The notes under the pieces were generated by a model, which made no database searches, was not told where the DNA came from, and saw only the letters and a list, made by a program, of their open reading frames with translations. From the NCBI GenBank assembly GCA_032718475.1, contig JAUCBJ010007130.1, positions 35,686-99,685 on the forward strand: a stretch of 64,000 nt of DNA, in the 5' to 3' direction. How positions within the stretch are numbered: the first letter of the stretch is position 1; the number at the start of each line of letters is the position of its first letter. The position numbers and the translations under genes were made by a program. Positions 1 through 27,049 of this stretch are shown here, in pieces. The stretch is from Nemertoderma westbladi (Eukaryota > Animalia > Xenacoelomorpha).

Positions 1-1007
1 TGTATTATTCGACTGACAGTATTATATAATCTCTGACAATATTATTCACCTTCGGGAATATTAACAGTTCCTTTAGGACGTGGCGCTTTATCTATATAAA
101 CAGAGTTATGACTTAAACTACTCACAACGATATGGCTTAATTATAATTCACATATATGGCGCATTCTTTAGGAATTGCTTCTTTAACAGACTCACTCATA
201 CACAATGCTGCACAATACTGCACACTAATCTGCCAATCTTCACTGATTTTAGTCACATATAAAAGGAACACAGGCTGACTCATGTAGGGTCTATCAAATA
301 ACATTAGATTCACTTCAAACCACTTTAACATAAGTCACAATCGTTATTGGTAACCTTTCTCTCTTACCTTCGGTATATCAAGAATATTGGGTTTCGGGGT
401 TATTTATCGTTATTCCAAATATAATAATTCATCAACCATATTATGAAGAACTGACAGTAAATAGCAGTATAAAACAACAACTGAACACTGATTGTTATGA
501 GTTTGCAATGTTTCAGCAGTCAGGATGTATGATCAGTTATCAAGTAGTCGTTAGCTAAAGGATATATGTCCTTATAATTAAACCTACTAGTGTAAGACTA
601 AAAACTGAAACACGGAGGTGCCAAAAGCCGGTTCTTAGGCTCTGGGCAAAAACATAACACTGCACTACTGAGTTTCTGTATATACCTCCAACACAGAGAC
701 AACAAACGCTCTGATTGGTCAACCTGAACAACGAGAGAACAAAGAAACAAAGAAACGTCGACGTGGCAATATCAGCTGCTAGCCGTCGTCATGGTAGCGA
801 CACTGTTTTCAAGAGTATCGAGCTTTTACGTCACAGAATTACGGATTATGTCCTCTAAAGTACAAATACAGAAGAAATAGCTTTTATGTCCGCTAAAACA
901 CCAGTACAGCAAGGACACGGCCTTTTTATGCCTGGTAAACCAACTACAGAGTATTTTACGGGAAAAATAAGGAAAAATAACCGGACAATTCAGCAAAAGC
1001 TTTTACA
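1..1007 (-). repeat. LTR of a third, diverged subfamily related to elements A/B (truncated by window start; 5' or solo LTR)
   Basis: Reverse complement aligns by eye with LTR 3441-4607 (TGTAAAAGC start at 1007, CCAATCAGAGCG box, GCGCCACGTCCTAAAGGAACTGTTAAT block); no PPT on its right flank. Confidence 0.85.
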
Positions 1008-1239
1008 GTCGACGATCAACAAATACGGCATACAAATTATTCATAGATCAAATTGATGAAACAAACACAGTAGCAAGTTACAAATGGTGCTTAGAGTTTC
1101 ACACTGATGTAGATATCATTTTGTGGAACAATTTTTTCATTTCCTCATTCTTTTCATTTTTTTAAATGGCCAAAACAGACTCACGGGAAGTGAAAATGTG
1201 GTCCTTTCAATTCAAGTTACTGCACCATACAGTGGGTTA

Positions 1240-1660
1240 CCCACAAATATTGTACATTGTTATTTAAAATAGGAATTTCATCATCCAATTTTGTAAAACA
1301 CTCGAGGAAACTTATTTACATCTTTTCTGGGAGTGTGAAACTGTGACAAAATTAATTAATTGATGAATTTAAATTGTGCTGGTTAAAATCACAAAACAGT
1401 CATTCATTCTCACAAAGCTTTCAATGTTGTTTGGGTACCACACAAAAGTGCCGTCAATCGTTAATTGCGTCCTATACAGTTACTAAGATACTATATATTT
1501 ACTGCGAAAAATTCCAACATACTCAGTCTCTACAAATATCTGTTTTTCTACAGTTCTTTCTGCAGTTCAGGAATCAAAACTTTGCATTTTTGAGGAAAAA
1601 TGGATTAATTTTTAAGATAAAATGTGGGATTCCGAGTCCTAATAATAGTGCATTTTAATA
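1240..1660 (+). pseudogene. Degenerate 3' end of a non-LTR (LINE) ORF2, zf-RVT-like region
   Basis: Fragments translate to LFKIG...EETYLHLFWECETVTK...KILYIYC, resembling the C-terminal cysteine-rich motif of L1/Tx1-type ORF2; frameshifted; duplicated at about 55600-56020. Confidence 0.55.
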
Positions 1661-1839
1661 TAATATGGTGATCTACTTTTGTCATTATGTTATCTTACCT
1701 GCGCTACTTAAGCATCTAATACTGTGTAGCTAATAATAACCTATGATGTAGGGGCTTACTATAGGAAACCAGGTTTTTTATCATATCAATAAGGCGCTGC
1801 TGTAGGTTAACTGTATTTAATCACACTACTCTAGTAATA

Positions 1840-2834
1840 CACCATGACCCGTAATATAGTGTCATTTTCTGATGACACGGACATCCCCCCGCCCCCCCCC
1901 CCCCAAATTTTTCTACACATCTTTATCATATTGCTTGAAATTTGAAACACAACTACAGTAGTTCAACTCACTCAACTCACAAACTTCTGGTTGTTACCAT
2001 GAAGCCGGAATTTTCGATTTCGCCTTTAAATTTTTTTATAAGCGTTTTAAAAAAGTGTCTTTTACGAAATTGCACATCTCCTATCAACGCCATTCTTCAC
2101 ATTAAACTCGCTTCATAGATATTATTAAAAACCAAATATGTAACAAGTAACAATATCTGAATTTCGTTGAGAAACAGCTGAGAAATAGGCGTTCAAAGAT
2201 TGCAAAAATTATCGTTCGCTGCAAGACATTTATTCTATTTAATAAGTACACGATGTTCTGGAACAATTTGTTTATGTATGATTAGCTACGCAATATAGAT
2301 ATTGTATAGGCATACGACCATGGCCTACTATATATACGGCCTAACATGTTATCGATTTGTCTTAAAAAAGAGGCCAGTTTTTTTTACACTATTTTAATAT
2401 TTTGATATGGGGAGAGTTCTATAAATTGTCATTTGCTGCAATTTGGTCAACGGACGTAATTGAAGTATCTTCATTAAGCAAGATACTAAGCAAGATACTC
2501 AGCTGTTTCTCAACGAAATTCAGATATTGTTACATATTTGGAATACTAGAACGCAAGCTTTTTAATAATATCTATAAAGCGAGGTTAATATGAAGAATGG
2601 CGATGATAGGTGATGTGCAATTTCGCAAAGACACTTTTTTAAAACGCTTATAAAAAAATGTAAAGGCAAAATCGAAAGTTCCGGCTTCATGTTAACAACC
2701 ACGGTGGGTGGAACTACTGTAGTTGTGTTTCAAATTTCAAGCAATATGATAAAGATGTGTAGAAAAATTTGGGGGGGGGGGGGGGGGGGGTGTCCGCGTC
2801 ATCAGAAAACGACACTATATTACGGGTCATGGTG
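1840..2834. mobile_element. Foldback/MITE DNA transposon with long TIRs and TA TSD, internally deleted copy
   Basis: TA|CACCATGACCCGTAATATAGTGTC ... GACACTATATTACGGGTCATGGTG|TA; arms inverted over about 350 bp; lacks about 740 bp present in the copy at 56199-57932. Confidence 0.85.
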
Positions 2835-3440
2835 TAATTACATTTTTTTTATGGGAGGTTATTATCTAGAATTCTAGAAGGTAAAATATTGAAAAAAGTC
2901 GTACCGGTACAAAAAGACTCGTATATGGTGATAAGATTACGTCACCACGCATAGATACTGTACTAGGCTATCCATTAACTAATTAACTATCTATTTCGTA
3001 TTACTTTTTGTGTAATTGCTTGTTGTGTAAAAGTTATATCTGTCGATGCGAATTTGAATTTAATTGGTGCAGCTCTGATAAATATTTATGGATTGAAAAA
3101 AAAAACTATTTCAAACATATTCACACAGTTTCTATACCGGAAGCAATATTTTTTATCCGATAACAAAGTCTAAGGTGGTCGGTCTCCGCGGGCTTTCAGG
3201 CGACACCGACCAAGATGTCATCTTTATATTCATATGGAGTTAATATTCATATGCGCCACTGCGTATCAAAAAGTGAAAAGGGGATGGGGCAGGGACAGGT
3301 TGATTTTCGTTTAAAGGGTCTAGGGCTAGGCTGGACCAGGGTACATCTCAGCCATGCATCCTTAAATGGTCGCTTTATATGAGTACTTTCTCTTAGAATG
3401 TAGAAGCACGAGGGACGACACTCGAAATAAAGACTCTACT

Positions 3441-4607
3441 TGTAAAAGCTTTTGCGTCATTAACCGGTTATTTTCCCTTAAAGTACTCTGTAGTTGGTTT
3501 GCCAGGCATAAAAAGGCCGTGTCCTTGCTGTACTGGTGTTTTGGAGGACATAAAAATCATTTCTTCTGTATTTGTACTGTATTTGTACTTTAGAGGACAT
3601 AATCCGCAATCTCATGACGCGATAAGCTGGATACTCTTGAAAACAGTGTCGCTACCATGACGACGGCTAACAGCTGATATTGCCACGTCAACGTTTCTTT
3701 GTTTCTTTGTTCTCTCGTTGTTCGGTTGACCAATCAGAGCGTTTTTGTCTCTGTGTTGGAGGTGTATACAGAACTCAGTAGTTCAGTGTTATGTTTTTTG
3801 CCCAGAGCCTAAGAACACCGGCTTTTGGCACCTCCGTGTTTCAGTCTTTAGTCTTACATTAGTAGGCTTAATTATAGAACGTATATCTGTTATCAAACTA
3901 GTTACTGAGTTAGTCACTCACTTAATAATCATTTATACCTTAACTTTACTGCTTTTACTGTCGGTTATTCATTATATTGGTTGATGAAATATTATATCGG
4001 AATACTGATCAATAGTCAGACACCCCAACTTCTTGATATACTAAAGGTTAGAGAGACCGGTTACAGATAAACGATTGCGACCTATGTTAAGTGGTTTGCA
4101 GTGAATCTAATGCTATTTCATATGCCCAACATAAATTGTCTGTTGCTCTCTTTATACGTGACCAAATTTAGTGAAGGTCGGCAGATTAGTGTGCAGTATT
4201 GTGCAGCATTGTGTATGAGTGTAACTGATAACAAAGCATCTCCTAAAGAATGCGCCATATACGTGAATCTATAGCCTTTTCGTTGTGTCTAGTTTAAGTC
4301 ATAATTCTGTTTACATATTTAGAGCGCCACGTCCTAAAGGAACTGTTAATATTTCCCGAAAGTGAATAATATTTGTCAGAGATTATATATTACGATCAGT
4401 CGAATAATACAGTAGGCTTACACCATCAATCATTAAGCTCCGAACTCAGTCTCCCGGGTATATCCAACGGGTGAATGATTGCGCATAGACTGGCTTCGGC
4501 TAATGTAGTGTATCAAATACTCGTCATAGGCTAAAGACTATCTATCATCCAAAAGACATTCTAATTTTGGCAGGTTAAACTGTCAAAGGTCTTCAAAAGC
4601 GCAAACA
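3441..4607 (+). repeat. 5' LTR of element A (1167 bp)
   Basis: TGTAAAAGC...GCGCAAACA; near-identical to 58539-59705 and to the partial copy 54932-55560. Confidence 0.95.
3728..3790 (+). promoter_or_regulatory. Putative LTR promoter: CCAAT box, TATA-like element and TCAGT initiator-like motifs
   Basis: GACCAATCAGAGCG is conserved in all A/B-type LTRs in the window and CCAATCAG is also in the C LTR; GTATACAGAA is followed by TCAGT motifs; the start site is not determinable from sequence. Confidence 0.4.
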
Positions 4608-4618
4608 ATAACAGATAT
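4608..4618 (+). promoter_or_regulatory. Non-tRNA primer-binding site of A, complementary to its own LTR (3883-3893)
   Basis: ATAACAGATAT directly abuts the LTR end and is the exact reverse complement of ATATCTGTTAT at 3883-3893; no TGG; repeated at 4677-4687. Confidence 0.7.
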
Positions 4619-4967
4619 TCGGTTCTGATTGCGGTGTAGGCAATAAATACAGTTTAATATTGTTTTGGTAAAAACAATAACAGATATTGCTTCTGGATTG
4701 CGGTGTAAGCAATCCAGTCTAAAGTACCGGTACCGGTTGAACGGTAACCTGTACTACTGTAGGCCTGTAGGCCCAACTGCCCGAACCGGTACTTACGGTA
4801 CAGGTACAGCAGTATTATTCGATTTGATTATTATATGCCGGTAGGTCTTAATAATTAATCGGGGACGCCTGGTTTTTATTGGGATTTTACTTAGGCCTAT
4901 TTCTGTCAGTTTTATTTATTTGTAGGCCAGTATTGAGCAGAAGGCGTGTAAGCCTGCTCAGATTGTA

Positions 4968-5525
4968 CAGATAATTTGTAGGCTTGACTGTTGGCTGACT
5001 GTTGATTAGGTCTGAACGGATTGCAGTGCATGTAGAGTGTATGTCCGATAAAGAACGGTTAGGAAGTAGGGGCAGCCATCGCTGTAAGGTAAACCCCCAT
5101 CCAAAGAATAAGTCGTACTACTGGGTTAGAACGCATACTACTTAACCATTTCGGAGTCTGCATGTCCTGTGGTTTATTTAGGCTTGATAGTAGTTTGCCA
5201 GCGTTTGGTCTGTACTTTGTTTGTGTAGTCTGTACGGGTAGCGTATAATTTATTTAGATAATTTGTAGGCTGGATAGTTGTCTGGCTGTTGTTGGGTTTG
5301 AGGAAATTTCGGTGTGTGCAAAGCATCTGTCCGATAAAGAACGGTTAGGAAGTAGGGGCAGCCATCGCTGTAAGGTAAACCCCCATCAAAGAATAAGTCG
5401 TACTACTGGGTTAGAACGCATACTACTTAACCATTTCGGAGTCTGCATATACCGTAGTTTGTTTAGGCTTGATAGTAGTCTGTCAGTATTTGGTCTGCAT
5501 TTTGTTTGAATGGTTTGTACGCGTA
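4968..5525 (+). repeat. Two-copy direct repeat (about 288-bp unit) in the 5' leader of A
   Basis: GTCCGATAAAGAACGGTTAGGAAGTAGGGGCAGCC... block at about 5043 and 5329; homologous duplication in B at about 24870-25420. Confidence 0.85.
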
Positions 5526-6489
5526 GCGTAATATTTATTATTCAGAGTTTATGCGATTATTCGCAACATTCATATCCCCAAGTTTATTCCTACAGTAATT
5601 GTGTTTGTTATACATACCGTTATAGTTAAACTAACCCCGGTACTACATCAGGGCTGCTCGGCGTAGGTAAAGACTGGAGATTTTGTGCTTTGGTCACTCC
5701 GGCAGATACCGTGGTTCTTTTAGCTGTTCAAGTATTTTTAACTACTAATTATTTGTTATACAAGTACTTGTACCTAATTTAGGGTTTAGTGTACAGTACT
5801 TTCCGAAGGTGATTAGTGTGTAGGCAGTGTATTTGTGTTGTAAAGTGGTTAATAGGCACGTTGGTTCTGGTAGACCGCGGTAATTAACTTCTAGGTAGGG
5901 ACACTCCGTGATACATAACGTAGTACCTATAGCGATACGGTTATAGGTCGTCAGGCGGTGGTATTTTCCTATCTGGACAACGCAGTATATTTACTACTAC
6001 TTATTATTTTCAAATACCGTAGTAACCTGTCCGTTGTAATAACCAGATATTCTAACCCTTTGTTAGGCTGGTTAGTAGACTTCTTGTAAAATTACCCTAA
6101 AAATTTGTATTTGTGTATTTGTAATTAAATTTTTGTGTTTATTTAGAGATTGTAATCTCAACCCGAATTGTATGTAATTTGTAGTATTAAGTAACTTAGG
6201 TAAATTAGAATTATTTGTTTTAGTGTCTAACAAGTAGCACTCCACTGAGAGCGCACAACTTATGTGTAGTGACTCCCCCAGAAATAATAACATTTATTTC
6301 AAACATTGACAAAACCCATTAAACGGGTATATATATATTATAAATCAACTCAAACGATTTATAAATAGTAGGCCTGCCATATAACAATTAGGTCTCAATA
6401 TCAGTTGGACTACTGCTTAAATAACGGTAATAAAGTAAGTTAAAGTAACCAAGTAACCCTTAAAATTCAGAAATTCAATTATTCTAAAA

Positions 6490-6790
6490 TAATTGACATA
6501 CCGGTATTTACAATAGGCTTATTATATTTATTTCTATAAATTTTAGGTTGAAATCATACCGGTATTCTGTAATTAATTCTAGTTAATAATTATACTTATA
6601 TATACTATAAGTGTAAACTGCATACCGGTATCCACGATAGGCCTATTATATATTTATATATATTTGTGCTAAAATTATATACCGGTTTCTGTGAAAAACC
6701 TAGTCTGTAATAATACTTATATATACCATAAGCATACCGGTATTCTAATATTATATATAGCACGCTACACTGAGTAGCAGTATCGGTAAT
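6490..6790 (+). repeat. Degenerate array (about 60-bp period) of ATACCGGTA palindromes upstream of gag
   Basis: ATACCGGT at about 6498, 6556, 6622, 6680 and 6734; conserved in B at about 23637-23910. Confidence 0.7.
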
Positions 6791-6876
6791 TAATTACTAG
6801 GCTAGCAGTTAATACTGAATTACTGGACTTGTTTAGACTGTAATATAGCAGTAGGCATTCAACTGTGCAAACAAAC

Positions 6877-9800
6877 ATGTCTGATACTAAGCAGAACATG
6901 TCAGACAGTTTATTAGATGTAACTATCTGCGACTCAGATAAGGGTGTAGAACCGTCTACACCTAAGTTCAGTTCACCTCCCACTGTGAGGAAGGTCATCC
7001 CTCCAGTAGTAATAACAGAACCTAGGCTGGTCCAACATCGTAGGTCTATCATAGGCACTCGAGCCCAGGTCAAGCGGGACCAAGAAGCAGCGGAACAGCA
7101 ACAACCCGTGAGCCAAGAACTTATTTCTCAGCGGCCCGACAGCTCCAGTAGTGAAGATACTGTAGAACTGACACCCGAGCGCGGAGCAAGGATGACGGAT
7201 GCGTTTTATTCGGATCCCCTTCTCATCCTTCCTGCAGCCGTACTCACCAGGTTATTGATCGCTGTGGAAGAACACCAGATCGATTGGGCGAGAAGTAAGC
7301 GATCAACTAAAGATAGTTATGAGGGATACACAAGAGAAGAACTGAAGTCTATGGTCGAGTCGCAATGGAACTTCCCCGGACCCGGACTCCCGTTTGATTT
7401 ATCAGAAGCTGCCTGGGAAGACATACACCGGATGGGAGTAGCCAAGGAAACCATCGATCCAGCTGTGTGGAAGAGGTCCGCAGCCGGATACGCACAGGGA
7501 TTCTTCAGCTCTATGGAGCGAGTAGAAAAACAACTGTTACAACAACCTCAAGGACCTCAAGAGCAGGGACAACTGCTTTATCAAGTTAGAGAAATAATTC
7601 TGCGAATCAGGCTAATATTATCAGCCTTTGAAGAGGCTTCTAAAAGAAGACAAGACACGTCGTTGCAAGTTGCCGTAAAGACTTGGTTTCAAAGGGTGAG
7701 TCACCAGGTTCAAGGAACAGTTCAGTGGAAAGCTCAGCTGGAGGAGCGCTCAACCCATGGAGAATCAACAGACGCTACTTTTTCCCAAGTGGAAAGTGAA
7801 GCGACGGCAGAGAAACCGCATAAGAGGGATGCCATTGACATCTATCTGTCAGACTATCAACGTTTTTTGGGAGATGAAGAGTTGAGGAGAAGGCTAGATG
7901 GACTTAGCCCTAATAGTGAAGGAGCACAGCGTGTGCTTGACGCCATCGACGTGGATAGGTTATCGGCTAACCAAGCTAAATTCGATGAACAACTCCGCAT
8001 CGTTAAGGTTCAAGAAGAACAAGTAAAGAAAAAACGTATAGAAGATAGAAAGAAAGCGGCAGAGGCAGCGGCAGAGGCAAAAGCGGCAGCGGCAGAGGCA
8101 AAAGCGGCAGCTGCAGCAGTAGAAGCCGAAAGAAAGGCGGCCGAAGCGGAAATAAAAATAGCAGTAGCAGAAGCAGAACGGAGGGCATCTGAAGAGACAA
8201 CCCAACTAGAGTTGGAAAATCTTCAAGAGAGACAAGACAACTTTAATAAACAGTTAACAGCTAGTAATATGCAGATGATGAATCGATCTACTCCCAAAAG
8301 ACAAGGTTATACATCATCTGAGGAAGGCGATACCACCGATACTGAAGGCAAAGGAAATAGATCTCATCTAAGCAGACGTAAAAGAACATTCCACCGTCAG
8401 AAATTGCCTGATTTGCCTCCAGCTGTTAAAAGGCAACTAAATAACACCAACTTAGGTAGTACAGAACCCACAGACCAAATAATTACAATGGAGAGACTCC
8501 CTACTATAGTAGATGAGCCTGAAATAGTTAGGCCTGTTCCCGAAGCCACCCTTTCGGTCGTAGAGACACCTGTACTCCCTGAACCTACCTCTCAATTCCC
8601 GTTGCACAGCACTAAGCTACCTGTGCCCAGCAGAACAGTCCGTGAGACAGTTCATACCCTGGATTCCGAGCGAAATATTCATGATTTGTCGCCCGTTGTC
8701 CCTCGTCCGCCCGCTACAACGTTGGTGAATCCCGCTTCGGCGGTCGAATGGGTGGATGAGAGACGACGGGGGATGGATCTCTTGCTCGGACAGATGCAGG
8801 ACACTGTTCAACAATTCAAAGGCACAGTAAGGGAAAGTAGGCTAGAGTTGCAAGAAGTGCAGCAAAGTATCGCGCTAGAACGCGATAAATTAGTAAATAC
8901 ACAAAGGGGTATACCACCACCCCCTGTAACAATGTGTCAACCTGTTAGGTCTGAAGTATCTCATGCGCAAGGTGTGGAGCCTACACGCATCTATACTGCT
9001 AGCGAAGTAGAAACTCCTATAGTGAACCCTATTAAGGGTAATTATAGACCTGTTGATAATGATATTCCCTATAGACCGGATCATAATCCGAGAAATTTAT
9101 ATACCGATAACTCGATATTAAATAACACGATGGCCCAAGAAAGTTTTACGCGTCAAATGGCTAGAACCGAAGCCCGGCAAGCGGTAAAGGTGGGAGAGAT
9201 CGTCAAGTTCAATGGAGATGAGATGAAATGGTTACCTTTTAATGAATATTACAAAGATAACATACAGAACTCTGTGCAATCTAATGGAGAGAAACTTAGA
9301 TTCCTCATCGAGTGCTTGGAAGGATCTCCCAAGTTAATGGCGTTAAAGTTTATTGGACATCCAGACGGATTAAGACAAGTTTGGGATACACTAAACATCA
9401 GGTATGGTAATAGGAATAACATAGCTGGTTATTTATATGCAAAGTTGGTAGCGCCCCGAAAGTTTATTAGCAGCGGAATTATAGAGTTTTCCGATGAGAT
9501 TCAGGAGATCTGCAGACAATTAGATTGGCTAGGTAAGTCTCATGAGTATCAGAATACTATGGTTATTAGAGCAGTGGCTTCTACTTTACCGAAGGGTGGA
9601 GTAGGTACACGCTGGGATAAGAAAGTGTTATATATGATGGAACAACAATGACGAGACCCTACCATGGCTGATCTCATGTCATTCCTAGATGGAGAAGTGA
9701 AATTACAGCTCCTGAAACTGTCCAGAGAGAAGACACCGGAAAACAAGGTAAGTGAAAAACCCGTCGCTAGGAGAAAGGTAACACCAGTGTGTTATACAGA

Positions 9801-11100
9801 TGATGGCGAAAGCCAGACTTCTCAAGGAGAAGATAGCGGGAAAGACACTGACCGCGCTTATTACGTAAATAAAATGCCTAAAGATCAGGTAAGTAAATTC
9901 AAGTCTCGAACAAATGACAGGAGAGAACAGGTAAGAAAAACTCCTCCTACGTCTCCCAAGAGAATTCCGGTGAGAAAACCCGAAGAAAGGACAAGCGTAC
10001 ACAATGTTACTCAGAGTAAGGTGAGTAACATCAAACCGAAGTGTGCGCTATGTGATGAATATGTGTGATGAATTTCTAAAGAAATCATTAACTGAGAGAC
10101 GTGAAGTCATGTGGGACAAGCGGTTGTGCTATAATTGCCTCAGACAAGGACACCAACGGCGAACCTGTTACTCTGACACAAGATGTGCCAAGTGCGGTGC
10201 GAAACATCATATCTTGTTGCACACTGAATTCGAGCGAAATAGTCCGAGTCAGGTAAGTGATTCCGAATTACATGTCCAATTCAGTGATGTGAACGACACT
10301 GATCAATCTGAGATGGAAGGATTCTATACAGACGAGTTCTCCGACGAAAACGAATCCTGTTACATGATAAATACCACAGTGTATCGAGCACTCATTTATG
10401 AAAAAGATACAGACATTGACCTCGCTCTAACTACTTCTGATCGACAACCATCTTGGAAAGCGCCAACTTCCAATGTAGGGATTAGAGAATTTCCTGTGGT
10501 ACAGGTAAGGGTCCACGGACCAAACAGGAGTTATGTAGTGAATGCCCTCCTTGACTCCGGTAGTACAGGAACATTCATCGACAAAGAGCTAGCCGAAGAC
10601 ATATTCGCTGGACAACCCAAGTTCCGAACTAAGCTAAACATGTCAGGAATTATGCAAGTTTGGAAATCCACAGTAACCGCGGATTATTATGTAGGTGCGT
10701 TGTCCACCCCCCAGGACGAACTAGGAGAACATAGCATAAAGTCAGTGAAAATGGTGGCTATAAAGAACTTCGCTACTACTCAAGCAGACCTTTATAATTG
10801 GGACGAGGATGAGAGCATCCAACATCTTAAGATACCTCGATTCCAGACAGATTATCCTGGAGTGCAAATACTCATCGGTCAAAATGCGCATGAAGCGCTC
10901 GAGACATTAGAGAAACGACCTACTCAACCGCAACCTCTACAAGTTTATGCGGGAAGAACTAGAGTAGGTTGGTACTTTACTGGCCCTTCCCGTAGAACTC
11001 TAATGGAAAGATTACCTAAAGAGCAGGTATATCAAGCGCGAGAATGGGAAGTTGAGAACAGTGAGTTCGACGATCCAACTGAGGGAACTCCATACTCCTC
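6877..11100 (+). pseudogene. gag: Element A gag-protease (5' part of gag-pol polyprotein), disrupted
   Basis: DUF1759-like KFNGDEMKWLPF, Bel/Pao triple zinc knuckle, aspartic protease ALLDSGSTGTFI; TGA at 9649-9651 where B has Arg; frameshift near 10055; interrupted by B at 11100. Confidence 0.9.
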
Positions 11101-12366
11101 TGTACGCGCTTTTGAAGACCTTTAGCAGTTTAACCTGCCAAAATTTATATGTCTTTTGGTTTATATATAGACTCTAGAAGATGACAATATTTAATACCAA
11201 TAAACACAACATTAGCAGAAGCCAGCCTAGTGCGCGTCCATTCACCCGCTGGATATTCCCGGGAGACTGGATTCTGAGGGCTTAGATTATTATTGCAGTG
11301 AAGCTTACTGTATTATTCGATTGATCGTTAATAAATAATTTCTGACTAATATTATTCACTTTCGGGAAATATTAACAGTTCCTTTAGGACGTGGCGCTCT
11401 ATCTAAGTAAACAGAGATATGACTTATACTAATCACAACGGTAAGTCGATAAGGCTTATGATTCACGTATGAGGTGCATTCTTTAGGAAATGCTTAGTTA
11501 TCAGCCAGAATCATGCACACTACCGGTAACACACAATACTGCTCACTAATTTGCCGACCGTCAATGAATTTTATCATATATAAAGAGAATAGCAACGGAC
11601 CAATGTAGTGCTTATCAAACAGCATTAAATTCAATACACACCACAATAATATAAGTCACAATCGCTATATATATAACCCGCCTCTCTAACCTGTAGTGTA
11701 TCAAGAAAATTGGGAAATTTGGGTTCTTTATAAACGTTCTCCAAATAATCTTCAATCAACTGATATAAAATATGACGACAGTAAAAACATTAAGACGGTA
11801 GGTTAAGATATGATATGAACCGATATGTACAGTGATATGAGTTGAGTGTCCAAATTGTGCCGTGAATTAGACTGATAACAGTCATACGCTCTATAATCTT
11901 AAGCCTACTAATGTTTCTTTCTAGAGCCGTTGTTTCTGGCTTAGACAGCAATAACAACAAAGTATCAGTCCAAAAAACAGTAAGACTGAACACTCCCAGT
12001 ATGATCGGCTCAAAGCTCCACATCGACAGAGAAAATCGCTCTGATTGGCTGAAGCCAAACAAAGAACCATGCGTCCAATGGCTGTTTCCATTTAAGCAAC
12101 CAGCTGTTAGATGTCGTAATCTGAATCATCACGGCTAAGCTGTGTAAAAGTATTTGCCGTATTGCGGGTTTTTTGCCTTACCATGTCCGCTAAAACACGT
12201 ATATAGAAGAATGACTTTTATGTCCGTTAAAAACACCTGTAACGGTACCTTGCGGGCAAGGGGAATATATATACAGTTAGAGAACCCTTTTAGAGTATTC
12301 CAGCGCCTAGAGGGAAACTGGATTGCGAAGCAAAGGGGCCAGTTATATCCCACAGAAGCTTTTACA
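11101..12366 (-). repeat. 3' LTR of element B
   Basis: Matches 25784-27049 with only a handful of substitutions; preceded on the minus strand by PPT-like TCTGGGAGCGG (12367-12377), identical to A's. Confidence 0.95.
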
Positions 12367-12444
12367 CCGCTCCCAGAAAATGGGATTTGAGTCTATTAAT
12401 ATACAAAAATCACAGTTTCTAATATACGTAAATACTCTAAACCG

Positions 12445-13733
12445 TTAGTCTTTCTTGCGCGGACGGCGTTTACGCAATTTTTTAAAGCTAGCCAGAGTCC
12501 TTTTCTCTTTGGGGCGAGCCACTTTACAAGGAGGGCTATAACTCCTGGGTGAAGGGTGCAATATGATTGCATCAGAGGGTGTAGAATTATGGTCGGTGTA
12601 TCCGCCAGTCGAAGTGCCGGGTTGATTGACATCAACGTCGGGGGAGAGGGGTCTAACGGCTTTGAGAGCGCGTTTTAAGACAGCCGCTCTTACGGGTCCT
12701 TTACGAGTGGTCTGAACGAGGGCCGTGGGTGGACTATAGGCAGCTAGAAACCTCCGGGTTTTAATGGTCCTTTCCAACTCGCGTTCGCGGGCTCGGTATT
12801 CGTAAGGCCGTCGATATACTTCCTGTAACTCGATATGCGTGATTTCTGTTCGACAGAAGCGAATAGATAAGGATGGAACGCATAAACTCCTTCGTAAGCG
12901 CGTCCGGAATAATAGCGATGGCGCGAATCACAATGTAAATCAGCGTTCGCTTCCCAAGCTCTGATGTAACGTAGTGTGATCATTTCATCTACGCTTTCCA
13001 AGTCGTGATTAAAAGGGCAATCAAAACTGGCGTGTCCCTTTAGTTGACAGTGGTGACATTGAGTCATAAATTGAGGGCAAACCGCAAAAATATGCAAATT
13101 ATTAAATCTGCAATACGCGCAATAAATTTCCATCGCCGGTTGTTCGTGGAAATAGGAACAGCGGACGTTTGTGTCCATGGGCGTAACATGGTCTCTCGAT
13201 GCGCATAACCGACAACGTTGCCGAGAAACATAGTTGGCATGGCGATAATCGTACGCAGTGAGACACTGTGGACCTTGATACCATTCTAGGATGTAATCGT
13301 TGTCGCTGTTCCGGGCACGCTAGGCTGAATCTCCTCAGATTCTAGGCATATTGTTTCGTCTTCCCAGTCTGTTACGAATATAATTTTCGTGATCTATTCT
13401 CGGTTTATCGTTACGACTCCGCTGGGTATGATATTTAAATAGAACCATTTCCCTTTCGGTGTCTACATCATCCGTATCAGGTAAATCGATAGGATGGCCG
13501 GTAGTTAGGAAGTCCATATCCGTACTATTACGATGCGTATAGCGAGCGGTGAATTTTCGCTAGTCCAATTCACGCGTAAGTTGCTCTTGGGACATCGGCG
13601 GTTCGATATAACGATCATCGTCCTCCGTAATGGTTGGATCGGTTTCACCGCGTATCAAGCTATCCACAAATGCTTGTAAAGGTAGAGTATATCGCTCCCT
13701 AATACCAAGATCATCTTCTATCAACTCCGTCAT
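12445..13733 (-). pseudogene. Deleted remnant of the accessory exonuclease/zinc-knuckle ORF in B
   Basis: Homologous to 50595-54853; keeps the N-terminus, CCHC knuckles and basic C-tail but lacks about 2.8 kb (including the exonuclease) and about 160 bp; internal stop near 13560. Confidence 0.9.
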
Positions 13734-15358
13734 ATCTGCTATCTGAGTTTATTAATATCAAATAAGTTTATATTTAGGCGAGCGGGCGTCGCTGCCTACC
13801 TCTCTTCGCCCCCGGACAGTGGGATTCTCAGCGCCGATACACCGTCGTCGCGGTGTTTACGCCAACATGTAGCAACAGCAAGACAACGATAACCGGCACA
13901 AGTCACTCCACTGTCCGTCCCAAAGGCTTGAATCCACTTTAGGTTCTTTCTATAGGAGAGTTGGGCTACTTTCACAATTGCGACTAGCTACTGTAAACAC
14001 ACCTTAGCAGTAACATTCACCTACAAACACACAAATTCCACACAACTGTCACCAATTGTACACATACAGGCCATTTGTCCGTTAGTCAGTGCCTTCCAGA
14101 ATGTCACGTTATTACTGTGTATCCTTGGATACTAACAGTGTGCTATGTATTCTCTATGCTATGCAATGGGACAAGCTTTCTAATGTTCTTTTAACTTGCT
14201 TCTAATTCTAGCGTGGGTGTTGCTATGGTGACATTATGGAATGCTAGCGGTAGAATTAGGGTAATTCTCATGCATACAGATCTGGGATGCTATTTAATAA
14301 TAATTCTTTAATTGTCAATATCCTCTTTATGCATGATTTTATTAATTTTATCGGCTATTGACTATATGTTGGAGATTCTCGCACTCTAATACACTCAATA
14401 GGATGAATCTCCGCTCCCATGATCTATTAATTAATGGAATTTTGGGAATGTTATAAATTGCACAAAACGACAATTTATGAAATTCATTTAAAATATGAAT
14501 TTAAATTTATTCCCATGAATTTTATTATTTGATGTTAAAATTGACACAATTTGATTCCAGAGAAGGTCTGGGGACATAGGATCCTTAATTCTATGAGATT
14601 GTCTTTTAAGAGTATCGGTAAGTGCTACGATATCTTAATCGACTAGAATTGTTAACGGATCTGAATTTTACAGATTTTACTAAATATTAAATTAATATTT
14701 AAGATGGGCACCGATTTATTCCAGAACTTGTCTGGGGACGTTAACCACTGATTCTAGAATTTGTCTTTCAAGTATATCGGTGGGTGCCGCGATATCTTAA
14801 TCGACTAGAATTACAGATGGTCAAAAGGTTTAACAGATTTATTTGCGTTTTACGCTACTGTTAGGGACATCACGCTACTATATGTATTATTTAATATACG
14901 GTAGAAGAGCAATATCGCACGAAGCAATGTCAGTGTGAAGAGGCAAGTCGTTTCCAAGGTCTACCCAGAGCTTGGTTTAGCCGAGACACGAGGATCTGAA
15001 CTTTGCATTCCTAATACTCTGCCTACCAATAATACTTTAATATAGTAGTGGCTTTATTGTACTTTAAGAAGTATGGATATTTCATCTTACTGTAGTCACG
15101 TATTTATAATATGATACGGTCAGTAAGGAAAGAGAAAAAATAATTATTTCTCACCGTCGCACTAAATATATATTATAAGTAATTACGTACGTAATAAACA
15201 CTAATATATTGCACTAATCTACTAAATAATCACTAAAATAACATTCTACTAAATAAAATTGAATAAAAACGATTATAATAAAGTACATAATAAAGTTCGC
15301 ATATAAAAATACAATAAAATAGATAAAACAATATAGTCATACACCCACTCCAGACGTA

Positions 15359-17119
15359 TTACGTTGGGGAGTCCCTAGATGTTTGAGGTATTAGGGAGGT
15401 GGTCGTGGGAAGAGTGTCTTGCCTTCCATAGTTTTCAGAGAGTTCTCTGTCTCTTTCCAGTAAACATAAACGACCAACTGGGCGATTGAGTTGTTGCGTC
15501 TCAAAGATTATGCCGGGCTTCTTGAAGTTACGCCGCATAACGATGAGTTCTACTGAACGCACTAAACCATCCTCCGAGATATGGGTCTCGATGATACGAC
15601 CTGTCTGCCACCGTTTACGTCGGAGGTCTGGATCTACAATAAGTACCATATCTCCGGCGCTGACGTTTTCTTGCTGCGCAAACCACTTAGTTCGAAGTTG
15701 TAGCGTGGGCAGGTAATGTTTCTCGAAATGGTCAGCGAAACGACGGGATAGCAACTGCATAAGTTGCCAAGTTCGACGGCAGTATTCGTCTCCGTCGGCA
15801 ATCTCCGATCGTGGGAGCATGGCTACCGGTTTCTTCAGTAGAAAATGCGCAGGTGTTAGCGCTTCCAGGGAATCGGGACTCGATGAGACTGGCATAAGCG
15901 GTCTCTCGTTGAGATAGGCAGCTATTTCCTCCATTAACGTCCGCAAAAGTTCGTCGGTGAGATACGCACGGCATGGCACTATAAAGTGAAATGCGGTCTT
16001 AACACTTCTAATTAATCTCTCCCAACTTCCTCCCCACCAAGGGGCGTCGGCAGCGTTGAAGGTCCAGCTAGACGCTGTTATCCTTAGCTGGTCATCCACC
16101 TGTCTTTGGTTCCAGTCCTTTACGTAAGCCTGTATTTCGTTGTTGGCACCAATGAAGTTCGTTCCCTTGTCCGATCTCATGGTATTACTCGTACCGAAGC
16201 GAGCGATCTGTCGTCGTAAACTTAAGACGAAACTGTTGGTAGATAGATCGTTCACCATATCGAGATGGATGGCTCTGCAAGTCATGCACACGAAGATGAC
16301 ACACCATCTCTTGACTATAGTCCTCGCACGATATACTTCAATAGGGCCAAATAAATCTACACCAGTATTAGTAAAAGGTGGTTCATAGAAGCTTACTCGT
16401 TCCCTAGGTAATTCTGCCTCTCGCTGTGTTAAAGGCCTACTGAATGCTTTCCTACAGGGTATGCAGTTCCTAAGAACTTGGTTCAGAGCTCTACGGGGTT
16501 TATCAAAATAATAGCGAGTTCGAATTTCGCTAAGAACTCGTTCTCTTCCAGCATGATAAAGCTTACTGTGAACATCTACAATCATCTTGATTTGTACTTC
16601 AAGATTTCTAATGAGTATGGGGAATTTAGTGTCAAAGGATAAGGGTGCATTGGTGAGCCTTCCTCCAACACGTATTAACCCATCTATCATTGTGCTAGAG
16701 AATCGATCCCTTAAGCGCATCTGCGGATTTCTCAACAACAGGAAATACTTTTCGGAATCCTCATAGCATTGCAGGAGTCTCAGTATCTGTTTATTGGTCT
16801 CTTCATGCTCCTGGTGACTAATTTTCTCCTTTAGAAAACTGTCAGATACCTTATATTTAGGTAAGTTTTTAATAACATGAACTTGTGCAGATGTCAATGG
16901 AGCGTTATCACTAGTGGTCTTCGTCCTGGAGTATTGATGATGAAAGCATCTCTTTAAATATGTGACGGCTTTACAGAGCCGATTCCAGGAACTGTAGTGA
17001 TGCATCGCTCTCTGCAGCAGGGGTGAGATTCCTTGCGAGACGTCTGTTATTCCAGATTTCCAATCTCTATCTCGAATTTCCGCAACAGACTTATTTATAG
17101 CGAGGGATTGTGGATCCAA
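15359..17119 (-). CDS. pol: Element B integrase region (frameshifted from RT/RNase H)
   Basis: HHCC zinc finger, GVDLFGP, SDKGTNF, WERLIRSVK (DDE), DUF5641-like C-terminus; frameshift at a TTTTAGG expansion near 17195-17220. Confidence 0.9.
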   Translation of the reverse strand: MDPQSLAINKSVAEIRDRDWKSGITDVSQGISPLLQRAMHHYSSWNRLCKAVTYLKRCFHHQYSRTKTTSDNAPLTSAQVHVIKNLPKYKVSDSFLKEKISHQEHEETNKQILRLLQCYEDSEKYFLLLRNPQMRLRDRFSSTMIDGLIRVGGRLTNAPLSFDTKFPILIRNLEVQIKMIVDVHSKLYHAGRERVLSEIRTRYYFDKPRRALNQVLRNCIPCRKAFSRPLTQREAELPRERVSFYEPPFTNTGVDLFGPIEVYRARTIVKRWCVIFVCMTCRAIHLDMVNDLSTNSFVLSLRRQIARFGTSNTMRSDKGTNFIGANNEIQAYVKDWNQRQVDDQLRITASSWTFNAADAPWWGGSWERLIRSVKTAFHFIVPCRAYLTDELLRTLMEEIAAYLNERPLMPVSSSPDSLEALTPAHFLLKKPVAMLPRSEIADGDEYCRRTWQLMQLLSRRFADHFEKHYLPTLQLRTKWFAQQENVSAGDMVLIVDPDLRRKRWQTGRIIETHISEDGLVRSVELIVMRRNFKKPGIIFETQQLNRPVGRLCLLERDRELSENYGRQDTLPTTTSLIPQTSRDSPT

Positions 17120-17195
17120 ATCATCGTTTCCGGAAACATGTAATACAGATAGATCGATAGTCGGTTTAAATAACTTCGATTTACTCGCCCGGGTT

Positions 17196-19190
17196 TTAGG
17201 TTTTAGGTTTTAGGTTAGGTTTCTCCGCTCCCTTGGCTTGTCTAATTTCCGCCGTAGTAAGGTGAGGAGGCCATTCGTCCTCTTCCTTGCTCAGGAAGTC
17301 GGGTCCACCCAACCAATCTGGAGTATCTATCAGTTCCTGTGGAGTTGCTCCCCTGGAGGCGATATCGGCTGGATAAATCGTACCAGGGCAATGTCTCCAT
17401 TGATCTATCTTTGTGCGACTAAGAATAATAGCTACCCTGTTAGTAACAAAAACGCTGAACTGACAGACTTCATTGGTTAGATATTCCAACACGAGTAAAG
17501 CGTCGGTCCAATAAACCGTTTTCTCCAGTGGGTAATCGATTTGTTCCGTTACGTTCCGGCTGATGGCTGTAGCGTATAAAGCCGCTTTTAACTCCGCTCG
17601 AGGAACCTTTAACTTGTTGTTAATCAGTGCCTTAGAGGTAACCAAGGCGACTTTGATTCCATCTGGGGTTTCGACTCGGAGATATGCTACTATACCTATT
17701 CCCATGTCGCTGGCGTCTCCAAACACATGGAGTTGATAGGAATACGTAGGAAGAACATGGCCAAAATATGCACGGGAAATTATAAAGTTCTCGATGGCAG
17801 GTAGAGAATCTTCCCATTTCATCCATTTCTTTAACAATTCTCCCTTAAGCGGATCGTCCCATGAGTGGTTTTCAAGCCACATTTGTTGTACTAAACTCCG
17901 AGCAATCAATATAACTGGGCTAATGAATCCCAATGGGTCGAAATAAGTGCTCAGGATACTTAAACAAATCCGTTTGGTCCGAACTGGATTATCTCGCTGT
18001 TTTAACTGAAAAAACAGGATGTCTCTTTCAGTGTCCCACTTCAAGCCAAGCTTCTTGGTTTCAGGAAGATCGTCCTTTATTAAGTCTAGATCTTTCGCTC
18101 CGCGGTCTTCTACCGGTATGGCTTCCAGAAACTCAAGGGAGTTGCTAGTGAATTTCGTTAGTCGAAATCCACCTCTTTTCAAACACTCTACCGTTCCTTT
18201 CGCGACAGCTATGGCTTCTTCTACTGATGGAAGGGACCTTAAATTGTCGTCCATGTATATATTACGCTTTATATTGTCTATCACTTCCTTTGAGAAGGAG
18301 TCTCTGTTGTCATTCGCAGTGGTTCGCACTACGGAGCAGGCGTTGGAAGGGCTAGATATGATCCCAAAAGCCTGGATGGTCATCCAGTACTCTACCGGTT
18401 TCTGGTTGAGGTCTCCTTCAGGCCACCACAGAAATCTCAGGCTGTCTCTATCTCTCTCCAGCGCCTTGACTTGTAAGAACATTCCTTCGATATCGGAAGC
18501 GAATGCGATGGAATATTGTCTTAATCTCAAAAGTATTCCCAACAAAGATTGGAGTAAATTGGGTCCTGGTAACAACTCGGAATTAAGGGATTGGCCCATA
18601 TATAGAGCAGAGCCATCGAATACGACTCGTACTTCATGGGGCTTACCGGGTTTGGGAACGTAATGATGTGTTAAGTAATACGTTCTCTCAGTCACTGGTG
18701 TTCCTTCCGGTACTCGCTCCGCGTATCCCTTTGTTATAAATTTCTTCAGCTGAGTTTGGTACATTTCTTTCGCTGAAGCATTAGCTGTAAGGCGTCGATG
18801 TAATTGAGCGATTCTTTTCTCGGCCAAGGGTCTGTTATTTATAAATCTAGGTTCTCGTTTTCGAAATGGCAGGCCGATTTCATACCTACCTTGGTCTTTT
18901 AAAAAACGTGTAGTTGTTTCCTGGATTTGCTTGGCTCTTTCTTCTTCTATCGATAGAGCCTTATCATACGAATTGGGCTCTACAAGTTCCTGAGTAAAGA
19001 ATCGTACGGCTAGTTCGTCCCGAGTTCTAGCGTTGCAGCGCTCTATCTCATCGTTGAGTTCGTCATTGTAAGCGATGGGTTCCGATGGGTGAATCAGTTG
19101 ACATAGGTTCACCTGATCTTTCCAAGTTTGGTTTTCTGTAAGTAAGTCTATGGTGTTCTCCTCATCGAAGATTTGATTGATAAGTGTCAT
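17196..19190 (-). CDS. pol: Element B reverse transcriptase and RNase H fragment
   Basis: VRVVFDGS, SDIEGMFLQV, YMDD, LHVFGDAS, PRAELKAA, YWTD, PADIASRG. Confidence 0.92.
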   Translation of the reverse strand: MTLINQIFDEENTIDLLTENQTWKDQVNLCQLIHPSEPIAYNDELNDEIERCNARTRDELAVRFFTQELVEPNSYDKALSIEEERAKQIQETTTRFLKDQGRYEIGLPFRKREPRFINNRPLAEKRIAQLHRRLTANASAKEMYQTQLKKFITKGYAERVPEGTPVTERTYYLTHHYVPKPGKPHEVRVVFDGSALYMGQSLNSELLPGPNLLQSLLGILLRLRQYSIAFASDIEGMFLQVKALERDRDSLRFLWWPEGDLNQKPVEYWMTIQAFGIISSPSNACSVVRTTANDNRDSFSKEVIDNIKRNIYMDDNLRSLPSVEEAIAVAKGTVECLKRGGFRLTKFTSNSLEFLEAIPVEDRGAKDLDLIKDDLPETKKLGLKWDTERDILFFQLKQRDNPVRTKRICLSILSTYFDPLGFISPVILIARSLVQQMWLENHSWDDPLKGELLKKWMKWEDSLPAIENFIISRAYFGHVLPTYSYQLHVFGDASDMGIGIVAYLRVETPDGIKVALVTSKALINNKLKVPRAELKAALYATAISRNVTEQIDYPLEKTVYWTDALLVLEYLTNEVCQFSVFVTNRVAIILSRTKIDQWRHCPGTIYPADIASRGATPQELIDTPDWLGGPDFLSKEEDEWPPHLTTAEIRQAKGAEKPNLKPKT

Positions 19191-21090
19191 CGTTATCTGA
19201 GGAGTATGGTGTTCCCTCAGTTAGTTCGTCCACCTCACTGCTCTCCTCGCTCCAATCGCTCACATGATCTACTCGTTCTTGTGGCATTCTCTCTTCGAGA
19301 GTCCTGCGGGAAGGGCCAGTAAAGTACCAACCTACTCTAGTTCTTACCGCATAGGTTTGCAGTGGCTGCGGTTGAGCAGGCCGTTTCTCCAATGTTTCGA
19401 GCGCCTCGTGCGCGTTTTGGCCGATGAGTATTTGCACTCCAGGATAATCTGTCTGGAACCGAGGTATCTTAAGATGTTGGATGCTCTCATCCTCGTCCCA
19501 ATTATAAAGGTCTGCTTGAGTAGTAGCGAAGTTCTTTATAGCCACCATTTTTACCGACCTTATACCTTGTGTTCCTAACTTATCCTGGGGAGTGGACAAC
19601 ACACCTACGTAGTAATCTGCCGTTAGGGTAGATTTCCAAACCTGCATAATTCCTGACATATTCAATTTTGTCCGGAATTTGGGTTGTCCAGCAAAGATGT
19701 CTTCGGCTAATTCTTGATCTATGAATGTTCCTGTGCTGCCGGAATCAAGGAGTGCGTTCACTATGTAACTGTGGTGAGTACCATGAATTCTTACTTGCAC
19801 TACAGGAAATTCTCTGATTCCTACGTTGGAAGTTGGCGTTTTCCAAGATGGTTGTTTGGCAAAAGTAGTTGGGGAAAACTCATTGGTGGTGTCCTTTTCG
19901 TAAGTAAGTGCTCGATACACTGCGGTATTGATTAGATAACAGGATTCGTTAGCGTCGGAGAATTCGTCAGTATAGAATCCTTCCATCTCAGACTCCTGAT
20001 CAGTGTCGTTTACATCACTGAATTGGACATGTAGTTCGGGCTCACTTACCTGACTCTGTTTGTCTCGTTCGAACTCACTGTGTAACAAGATGTGATGTTT
20101 CGCGCCACACTTTGCACACTTTATGTCGGAGTAACAGGTTCGCCGTTGGTGTCCTGGTCTGAGGCAATTATAGCATAACCGCTTGTCCCACACAACTGTA
20201 CGTCTGTCTACAAGGGATTTCTTTAGAAATTCCGCACACGCACTCAAACGGTGGGTCCCGTCGCACAGCGCACAGTTAGGTTTTATGTTACTTACTTTAC
20301 CTTGGGTAACTTGATGCACTCTCGTTCTTTCTTCGGGTTTTCTTCGGTGCATTCTGTTAGGAGACTGAGGAGGGGTCTTAGCAACCTGTTCTCTCCTATC
20401 GTTGTTTCGAGCCTTGTATTTACTTACATCTTTTGAGGTTTTGTCAACGTAGTAAGATCGTTCGGTGTCTTTCCCGCTGTCTTCTTCTTGAGAAGCTTGG
20501 CTTTCGCCGTCGTCTGTGTAACACACCGGTGTTACTCTTCTCCTAGAAGCGGGTTTCTCACTTACCTTATTTTCCGATGTTTTCTCTCTGGACTGCTTGA
20601 TGAGTTGTAGTTTTACCTCACCATCCAAGAAGGACATGAGATCAGCCATGGTAGGACTTCGTCGTTGTTGTTCATTCATGTACAACACTTTGTTGTCCCA
20701 GCGTGTACATACTCCACCCTTTGGTAAAGTAGAGACTACGGCTCCAATAACCATGGAACTCTGATATTCATGAGACTTACCTAACCAGTCCAATTGTCTA
20801 CAGATTTCCTGAATTTCATCAGAAAACTCTATAATCCCGCTACTAAGGAAGTGTCGAGGGGCTACTAATTTTGCATACAAATACTTAGCTATGTTATCCT
20901 TGTTACCATACCTGATGTTTAATGTATCCCAAACTTGTCTTAATCCATCTGGATGTCCAATAAACTTTAACGCCATTAACTTAGGAGGTCCTTCCAAACA
21001 CTTGATGAGGAACCTAAGTTTCTCTCCGTTAGATAGCCCAGAGTTCTGTATGCTGTCTTTGTAATATTCGTTGAAAGGTAACCATTTCAT
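19162..21090 (-). CDS. gag: Element B Gag C-terminal part (zinc knuckles) and aspartic protease fragment
   Basis: CALCDGTHRLSAC, CYNCLRPGHQRRTC, CAKCGAKHHILLH, LLDSGST. Confidence 0.9.
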   Translation of the reverse strand: MKWLPFNEYYKDSIQNSGLSNGEKLRFLIKCLEGPPKLMALKFIGHPDGLRQVWDTLNIRYGNKDNIAKYLYAKLVAPRHFLSSGIIEFSDEIQEICRQLDWLGKSHEYQSSMVIGAVVSTLPKGGVCTRWDNKVLYMNEQQRRSPTMADLMSFLDGEVKLQLIKQSREKTSENKVSEKPASRRRVTPVCYTDDGESQASQEEDSGKDTERSYYVDKTSKDVSKYKARNNDRREQVAKTPPQSPNRMHRRKPEERTRVHQVTQGKVSNIKPNCALCDGTHRLSACAEFLKKSLVDRRTVVWDKRLCYNCLRPGHQRRTCYSDIKCAKCGAKHHILLHSEFERDKQSQVSEPELHVQFSDVNDTDQESEMEGFYTDEFSDANESCYLINTAVYRALTYEKDTTNEFSPTTFAKQPSWKTPTSNVGIREFPVVQVRIHGTHHSYIVNALLDSGSTGTFIDQELAEDIFAGQPKFRTKLNMSGIMQVWKSTLTADYYVGVLSTPQDKLGTQGIRSVKMVAIKNFATTQADLYNWDEDESIQHLKIPRFQTDYPGVQILIGQNAHEALETLEKRPAQPQPLQTYAVRTRVGWYFTGPSRRTLEERMPQERVDHVSDWSEESSEVDELTEGTPYSSDNDDTYQSNLR

Positions 21091-21119
21091 TTCGTCTCCA
21101 TTGAATTTGACGATCTCTC

Positions 21120-25772: not shown

Positions 25773-25783
25773 ATGACTGTTAT
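25773..25783 (-). promoter_or_regulatory. Non-tRNA primer-binding site of B, complementary to its own LTR (26558-26568)
   Basis: Sense ATAACAGTCAT abuts the LTR; exact complement ATGACTGTTAT lies at the LTR position homologous to A's 3883-3893. Confidence 0.7.
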
Positions 25784-27049
25784 TGTACGCGCTTTTGAAG
25801 ACCTTTAGCAGTTTAACCTGCCAAAATTTATATGTCTTTTGGTTTATATATAGACTCTAGAAGATGACAATATTTAATACCAATAAACACAACATTAGCA
25901 GAAGCCAGCCTAGTGCGCGTCCATTCACCCGCTGGATATTCCCGGGAGACTGGATTCTGAGGGCTTAGATTATTATTGCAGTGAAGCTTACTGTATTATT
26001 CGATTGATCGTTAATAAATAATTTCTGACTAATATTATTCACTTTCGGGAAATATTAACAGTTCCTTTAGGACGTGGCGCTCTATCTAAGTAAACAGAGA
26101 TATGACTTATACTAATCACAACGGTAAGTCGATAAGGCTTATGATTCACGTATGAGGCGCATTCTTTAGGAAATGCTTAGTTATCAGCCACAATCATGCA
26201 CACTACCGGTAACACACAATACTGCTCACTAATTTGCCGACCGTCAATGAATTTTATCATATATAAAGAGAATAGCAACGGACCAATGTAGTGCTTATCA
26301 AACAGCATTAAATTCAATACACACCACAATAATATAAGTCGCAATCGCTATATATATAACCCGCCTCTCTAACCTGTAGTGTATCAAGAAAATTGGGAAA
26401 TTTGGGTTCTTTATAAACGTTCTCCAAATAATCTTCAATCAACTGATATAAAATATGACAACAGTAAACACATTAAGACGGTAGGTTAAGATATGATATG
26501 AACCGATATGTACAGTGATATGAGTTGAGTGTCCAAATTGTGCCGTGAATTAGACTGATAACAGTCATACGCTCTATAATATTAAGCCTACTAATGTTTC
26601 TTTCTAGAGCCGTTGTTTCTGGCTTAGACAGCAATAACAACAAAGCATCAGTCCAAAAAACAGTAAGACTGAACACTCCCAGTATGATCGGCTCAAAGCT
26701 CCACATCGACAGAGAAAATCGCTCTGATTGGCTGAAGCCAAACAAAGAACCATGCGTCCAATGGCTGTTTCCATTTAAGCAACCAGCTGTTAGATGTCGT
26801 AATCTGAATCATCACGGCTAAGCTGTGTAAAAGTATTTGCCGTATTGCGGGTTTTTTGCCTTACCATGTCCGCTAAAACACGTATATAGAAGAATGACTT
26901 TTATGTCCGTTAAAAACACCTGTAACGGTACCTTGCGGGCAAGGGGAATATATATACAGTTAGAGAACCCTTTTAGAGTATTCCAGCGCCTAGGGGGAAA
27001 CTGGATTGCGAAGCAAAGGGGCCAGTTATATCCCACAGAAGCTTTTACA
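25784..27049 (-). repeat. 5' LTR of element B
   Basis: TG...CA ends, 1266 bp, flanked by TSD CTCCTC. Confidence 0.95.

Follow-up and report, generated by a model that had tools for sequence, protein, structure and literature searches.

The 64-kb stretch of DNA analysed here (the window) is filled by a nest of young LTR elements. Element A, on the plus strand, begins with a 5' LTR at 3441–4607 (1167 nt, TG..CA), which has 2 mismatches to a complete downstream copy on the same strand at 58539–59705 and shares a 5-bp target duplication with it; a truncated LTR copy of A, with a polypurine tract, is found at 54932–55561. Element B sits inside A on the minus strand, from 27049 to 11101 (about 15.9 kb, 6-bp target duplication), and its 5' LTR (27049–25784, 1266 nt) has 8 mismatches to the 3' LTR (12366–11101), ahead of which lies a polypurine tract. 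The LTR boundaries of A and B were set by comparing the 5' and 3' copies. The LTR of a third subfamily, C, occupies positions 1–1007 of the minus strand, where it is cut by the window edge, and the primer-binding site (PBS) of C lies beyond the window. Element D (47624 to 36973) is inserted into a duplicated part of the pol gene of A, with a 5-bp target duplication; its 5' LTR (47088–47624, minus strand, 537 nt) is identical to the copy at 36973–37509. The window also contains large near-identical duplications at 23677–36972 and 55554–59708 (5.9 kb at 99.9%); the upstream flank and LTR are duplicated behind the truncated 3' LTR of A, with a 7-mer present five times at the junction. These duplications represent either a recent rearrangement or an assembly artefact.

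A and B are Bel/Pao elements, and this membership rests on their proteins. The gag-pol region of B (15359–23561, minus strand) comprises four reading-frame pieces with the domain order typical of Bel/Pao, namely DUF1759, the Pao domain Peptidase_A17 (9e-37), Integrase_H2C2 and DUF5641; the coding regions of both A and B are broken into several pieces. The closest database proteins are of the Pao type (33–43% identical), those named coming from echinoderms, cnidarians, molluscs, barnacles, fish and other aquatic animals, and all homologues listed except one carry PF05380. The TG..CA LTRs, the polypurine tract and the short target duplication also agree with Bel/Pao; a PBS complementary to the 3' end of a host tRNA, which is part of the ICTV profile of Belpaoviridae, is absent from A, B and D. 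Pol of A and B is Pao-type and not of the Ty3/gypsy chromovirus lineage, which puts both elements outside the Tf1/sushi group. In an RT tree (FastTree, 74 rows) A and B lie on a long branch without firm placement, and their weakly supported neighbourhood (86) takes in a family with a tRNA-type PBS. Viral contigs yielded no relatives, either by protein or by LTR-end motif.

The 5' LTR of A ends with CA at 4606–4607 and is followed immediately by its PBS, ATAACAGATAT (4608–4618, plus strand), which lacks TGG and whose exact reverse complement, the candidate self-primer, is located inside the LTR at 3883–3893 (plus strand). An earlier note on this DNA had drawn attention to this 11-nt match and to its counterpart in B, and re-reading of the sequence bore out both: on the minus strand, the PBS of B, ATAACAGTCAT (25783–25773), adjoins the LTR end and is the exact complement of the LTR segment at 26568–26558. 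The alignment also agrees with the note in that the LTR segments of A and B are homologous and the two bases changed between them are compensated. A short tandem duplication of the leader provides A with a second PBS copy (4677–4687, plus strand), and the PBS of B has a duplicate at 33188–33198; the earlier note mentions neither the duplicated PBS nor element D nor the second partner of the primer within the LTR, discussed below. The register of the match is precise: 11 nt pair perfectly when pairing is counted from the base that follows the LTR, and starting points 1–4 nt inside the LTR give 4–8 nt. Dinucleotide shuffles of the LTR contained the 11-mer in 26 of 20000 cases for A and in 13 of 20000 for B; in the internal region of A, 11 nt are reached at 3 of 6392 positions, two of which are the PBS and its duplicate at 4677. 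In A, B and D alike, the 20 nt next to the LTR end contain no TGG. The duplex, at -10.5/-12.4 kcal/mol with the proper partners, falls to about -6 kcal/mol when those of A and B are exchanged.

Element D, whose LTR is unrelated to that of A, represents a third case in the window. Its PBS (47079–47087, minus strand) adjoins the LTR, and the candidate self-primer at 47261–47253 (minus strand) matches it perfectly over 9 nt at offset 0. The match alone is modest (8 of 200 shuffles were as good); the predicted pairing of primer and PBS is 0.82, and a second helix, located upstream, joins about 47272–47285 with 47054–47067. Just inside the LTR end of D there is a 7-bp G+C-rich hairpin (47101–47119, minus strand) that recalls a U5 stem. 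Along with its identical LTRs, D has gag-like ORFs and a 2-kb array of 34–38 nt repeats at about 41230–43350, and it lacks RT (no RT ORF of at least 200 aa was found). A zinc-knuckle stretch in D is 30% like the gag of B (E 0.004), and D has a weak link to the extra ORF of A described below. D is probably non-autonomous.

A profile scan of metagenome contigs identified at least 79 loci in at least 60 families (best 80 of 555 confirmed). Sixty families could be sorted into 14 with both LTR ends, 7 with the LTR start only and 39 that fell outside the test. A self-complementary PBS of 10–15 nt is present in 13 of the 14 fully delimited families, with letters that differ from family to family. In 10 of the 14 the perfect complement (10–15 nt, spacer 0–5 nt) exists only across the junction of a GT..AG intron, and 0–3 of 200 shuffles were equal; the primer then consists of the bases ahead of the GT donor (GTAAGT in six families) joined to those after a pyrimidine-rich AG acceptor. 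Two families possess a contiguous 10-nt complement (5–6 of 200 shuffles equal), and one a 12-nt complement at a 9-nt spacer, which was found after the offsets had been widened. The remaining family has a TGG/tRNA-type PBS and a self-match no longer than 4 nt. Matches of 10–11 nt across an intron were also seen in 6 of the 7 families with the LTR start only, a count in which the LTR end was picked by the scan and to which no null is attached. When each LTR was paired with its own PBS (offsets 0–5), at least 10 nt were reached in 14 of 17 cases, compared with 15 of 272 cross pairs, 6 of which fall among three related families. Of 16 leaders in spliced form, 12 have a predicted pairing of 0.5 or more, and none of the 16 exceeds 0.37 when unspliced; the unspliced RNA of the intron-split relatives carries the primer as halves of 3–7 nt only. 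The loop between primer and PBS measures 60–203 nt in the relatives and 165 nt in D. Among L059, L036/L021, L056 and L050, the families with short LTRs (174–200 nt) have a contiguous primer; the sister family of one of them, L059, has a primer split by an intron, and this points to loss or gain of an intron within that clade. A primer spanning a splice junction was likewise considered for A, B and D and rejected, as junction matches there peak at 6–7 nt, below the contiguous match.

The earlier note had proposed that this lineage primes reverse transcription from its own LTR-derived RNA. This proposal has gained support, as the covariation extends to D and to 13 of the 14 delimited relatives; on inclusion of more families it grew rather than vanished, each family having letters of its own.

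The primer segment of A, B and C has a second candidate partner, an "anti-primer" within the LTR itself. In A it spans 4226–4264 (plus strand): 4226–4233 can pair with 3888–3895 and 4257–4264 with 3879–3886, with a hairpin (4236–4253) between them, which together form a three-way junction. The anti-primer of B (26148–26186, minus strand) exhibits the same two compensating changes as the PBS of B, i.e. the two primer changes of B are compensated twice, and that of C (150–188, minus strand) compensates the changes in the C homologue of the primer (555–565, minus strand), which differs from A at 3 of 11 bases. In the unspliced leader of A or B the helix between primer and PBS has a predicted probability of about 0, and the primer region is folded instead onto 4226–4233 and 4257–4264 (0.6–1.0 per pair). 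Both helices reappear in a consensus fold of A, B and C, whose 16 primer/anti-primer pairs, out of 139 in all, hold 6 of the 10 double-sided changes, and among the controls 0 of 500 shuffles reached 6 double-sided pairs, with slid partners giving 0–1. Out of 36 eight-pair helices compatible with all three LTRs, just two have at least 2 double-sided changes (3 each), and both lie over the primer; this support comes from three related sequences and a structure derived from the same three. We predict that the co-varying anti-primer hides the primer in A, B and C, and this form of masking within the LTR is new here. An Rfam search of 3400–4800 gave 0 matches at E up to 1. A ribozyme reading of the three-way junction was dropped, as the junction lacks the hammerhead core.

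The anti-primer of A and B lies within a candidate GT..AG intron, predicted only, which spans 4047–4573 (plus strand) in A and 26373–25818 (minus strand, 556 nt) in B; the donor is aligned in A, B and C and the acceptor in A and B. The loop between primer and PBS, 714 nt (A) or 774 nt (B) in unspliced RNA, would shrink to 187 or 218 nt without this intron, near the range of the relatives. Removal of the intron restores the predicted pairing of primer and PBS in most, not all, folded windows: values for intron-less A range over 0.15–1.0, with the duplicate PBS taking 0.8 where they are low, those for B over 0.58–0.81, and those for further windows (acceptor one base off) over 0.0–0.99. The candidate intron is 79–85% conserved compared with 56–69% for its flanks, which is odd for a plain intron, and its donor in A and B is non-consensus at +3. 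Run X1 (contigs whose status as RNA is a guess, sharing 0.17 of words with the window) returned, for 1–12400 (28 of 30 bins, many variants), 9 joints, none of which corresponds to 4047–4573, and it gave no start sites. The candidate intron also contains a 120-nt block (4290–4411) that is 89–92% identical among A, B and C and has neither an Rfam match nor a long ORF; it is possibly a packaging or structural element.

The earlier note had named a location of the complementary segment in untranscribed U3 as a danger to its proposal. The available signs, indirect as they are, favour R. A poly(A) signal follows the primer at 7–98 nt in 16 of 18 relatives, which places the primer in R, and half of the primer segment in the relatives lies ahead of a splice donor. 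Moreover, C is a mosaic, being 92–95% like A upstream of about 3859 and 69–85% downstream (B is 53–58% like both A and C upstream of this point), and the breakpoint, about 24 nt upstream of the primer segment, may mark the U3/R border. An initiator-like motif at 3859–3863 (plus strand), the putative U3/R border, is found 33, 35, 34 and 33 nt ahead of the primer 3' end in A, B, C and D, respectively; it is absent at such a distance in most relatives. The main contrary sign on the start site is a TATA-like word only about 10 nt ahead of the primer in A, B and C, which, if used as a TATA box, would put the primer in U3. The LTRs of A, C and D contain no AATAAA; the leaders of A and B do have this hexamer a short way past the PBS, at 4643 and 25753. 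Since the poly(A) signal of 16 of 18 relatives comes after the primer, priming from the 3' end of the genome RNA itself was rejected as a general rule. The reading of the earlier note is amended here in two points: unlike in Tf1, the primer is probably not formed by the first 11 nt of the RNA, as the indirect signs suggest a start about 22 nt further upstream, and the primer appears to be gated.

On these sequence comparisons we consider it quite probable that the elements prime reverse transcription independently of tRNA, with LTR-derived RNA of the R region, and that this priming is likely gated by splicing. Transcription would start about 33–35 nt ahead of the primer 3' end, and the primer would be part of R. 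As long as the RNA of A, B and C is unspliced, the primer would be hidden by the three-way junction that it forms with the anti-primer, as would its copy in the 3' LTR if R reaches there; removal of the intron would allow the primer to anneal to the PBS over a loop of about 190–220 nt. By analogy to the RNase H cut of Tf1, a cut or trimming at the duplex end could then generate a 3'-OH from which RT would extend into U5. The PBS would be rewritten, and the pair kept in step, when the primer is copied during plus-strand synthesis. The gate would differ between families, with splicing building the primer in most relatives and unmasking it in A, B and C. That primer and template are one molecule, i.e. 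that priming occurs in cis, has in our view nearly even chances; priming in trans, in which a spliced LTR transcript supplies the primer for an unspliced genome RNA as template, is somewhat less likely. The latter is the easier fit for A, B and C: with a spliced template, the new LTR would come out without the intron. A chimera from the first jump that breaks at the start site, upstream of the primer, would also imply an intact template 5' end and fit priming in trans better than a cut in cis, a pattern that survival bias could mimic. On a larger scale one may envisage a widespread branch of marine-invertebrate Bel/Pao elements in which the tRNA primer was replaced by the element's own RNA and which depends on splicing in two ways: most families would use a primer built at the junction, and the lineage in the window a whole primer locked by a co-varying three-way junction with intronic strands, where spliced transcripts arm unspliced genome RNA, possibly in trans. 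This extended picture is conjectural, and the balance lies somewhat against its holding in every part.

The alternative that survives best regards the pairing as a regulatory RNA switch (for packaging, dimerisation, translation or splicing control) and seeks the true primer elsewhere. As expected of a switch, the primer can pair with either of two partners, which exclude each other and are about equally strong by prediction (in A -13.9 versus -13.0 kcal/mol, in B -14.1 versus -15.4). The surroundings of the anti-primer are also highly conserved, but the helix with the PBS ends beside the LTR edge (spacer 0–5 nt in relatives, one at 9) and is nearly always perfect Watson-Crick over 9–15 nt. Besides, no tRNA-type PBS exists nearby, and the sole family that has a TGG-PBS is without the helix, which makes a switch improbable in our estimate. 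Priming by a tRNA half or another small host RNA, with the LTR match being secondary, is very unlikely: about 20 families differ in the letters of their PBS and each PBS fits its own LTR, whereas a host primer would fix the PBS and fail to account for the compensated bases of A, B and C. The likeness that can be cited for a host RNA is that of the 3' part of the A/B primer to a tRNA-Asn anticodon loop; no tRNA genes were found in the window or in the 30 of the 79 relative loci that were scanned. Half-tRNA priming as such occurs in plant Copia (PMC6317226). Finally, an accidental match, or a functionless relic of template switching in untranscribed U3, could draw on the low rate of 11-nt matches elsewhere in internal regions and on the TATA-like word ahead of the segment, but it is largely refuted by the relatives, considering the exact position and the compensation, the recurrence in the unrelated LTR of D and in 13 of 14 relatives, and the junction-spanning matches that are present only in spliced RNA, and we give it hardly any credence.

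Additional 3' ORFs with cysteine/histidine clusters occur in A (50562–54853, plus strand) and D (38223–40775, minus strand), and a homologous stretch is present in B at about 12500–13750 (minus strand). According to language-model features, the tested parts of the A and D ORFs resemble 3'-5' exonucleases of the DNA_pol_A_exo1 kind (0.90 and 0.94); they gave no Pfam match, a single-sequence structure model with a pLDDT of 32, and one uninformative match among representatives. No copy was detected in the 79 relative loci examined (tblastn, E 1e-3), and because of this absence the idea that the ORF could encode a primer-trimming enzyme is speculative.

Bel/Pao is one of three large superfamilies of animal LTR elements, with a replication that is poorly understood and described as tRNA-primed (PMC8742986). 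If our reading is true, self-priming has a further independent occurrence, which bears on whether tRNA priming or self-priming is ancestral (a question raised in PMC3601003), and the elements would no longer depend on tRNA supply and would escape defence by tRNA fragments. If the primer is made or unmasked by splicing, reverse transcription would need the host spliceosome to begin, and such a gate would explain why the copy in the 3' LTR does not prime. Annotation software that expects a tRNA PBS would miss such elements or set wrong bounds for them. The earlier note knew of no self-priming reported for Bel/Pao, and our search of the literature (most subscription journals, Repbase and GyDB being outside its scope) likewise found no report of this or of splice-made primers. 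Older papers on the Cer elements of C. elegans and on BEL of Fugu reportedly discuss unusual primer sites. In the main text of the Bel/Pao surveys PMC3118150, PMC554778, PMC6238403 and PMC8556966 the terms PBS, primer and tRNA are absent.

Among known systems, the elements share with Belpaoviridae (Semotivirus) the LTR-gag-pol arrangement, an integrase located after RT and RNase H, the Pao Pfam domains, the polypurine tract and the 5–6 bp duplications. They depart from the ICTV profile of this family (an 18-nt PBS complementary to host tRNA-Arg or -Gly, a genome of 4.2–10 kb; PMC8742986) in having no tRNA PBS, in the length of B (about 15.9 kb) and in the extra 3' ORFs. The exonuclease-like ORF brings to mind ORF3 of the bdelloid elements Juno and Vesta, which encodes a DEDDy exonuclease (PMC5408684), but those elements belong to other lineages, and the resemblance here is one of language-model features with no Pfam match. 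For Tf1, self-priming is an established mechanism, and it has been predicted for Tf1/sushi, Tcn1 and plant TAR elements (PMC6317226, PMC4600332, PMC5341516, PMC6934838, PMC5445492). The TAR lineage of plant Ty1/copia (Houba, Osr-1) is thus a case predicted outside Tf1/sushi, like the present one; it belongs to plant Copia, and the portions of PMC6317226 that describe it mention neither a splicing gate nor masking. The closest parallel is offered by Tf1/Tf2 of Schizosaccharomyces pombe, Tj1, Tf1/sushi and Tcn1 (Ty3/gypsy), which also lack a tRNA PBS and whose PBS is instead matched by about 11 complementary nt of the LTR; the Tf1 primer arises through an RNase H cut between bases 11 and 12 (PMC7175516, PMC4600332 and PMC6317226). 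Unlike in the Tf1 group, the superfamily here is Bel/Pao, the segment appears to lie about 22 nt into the RNA instead of at its first base, and the primer is masked by a predicted co-varying helix (A, B and C) or split by an intron (relatives), neither of which figures in the accessible descriptions of Tf1. By analogy, then, the feature would work like the self-priming of Tf1 in elements that are not members of Tf1/sushi.
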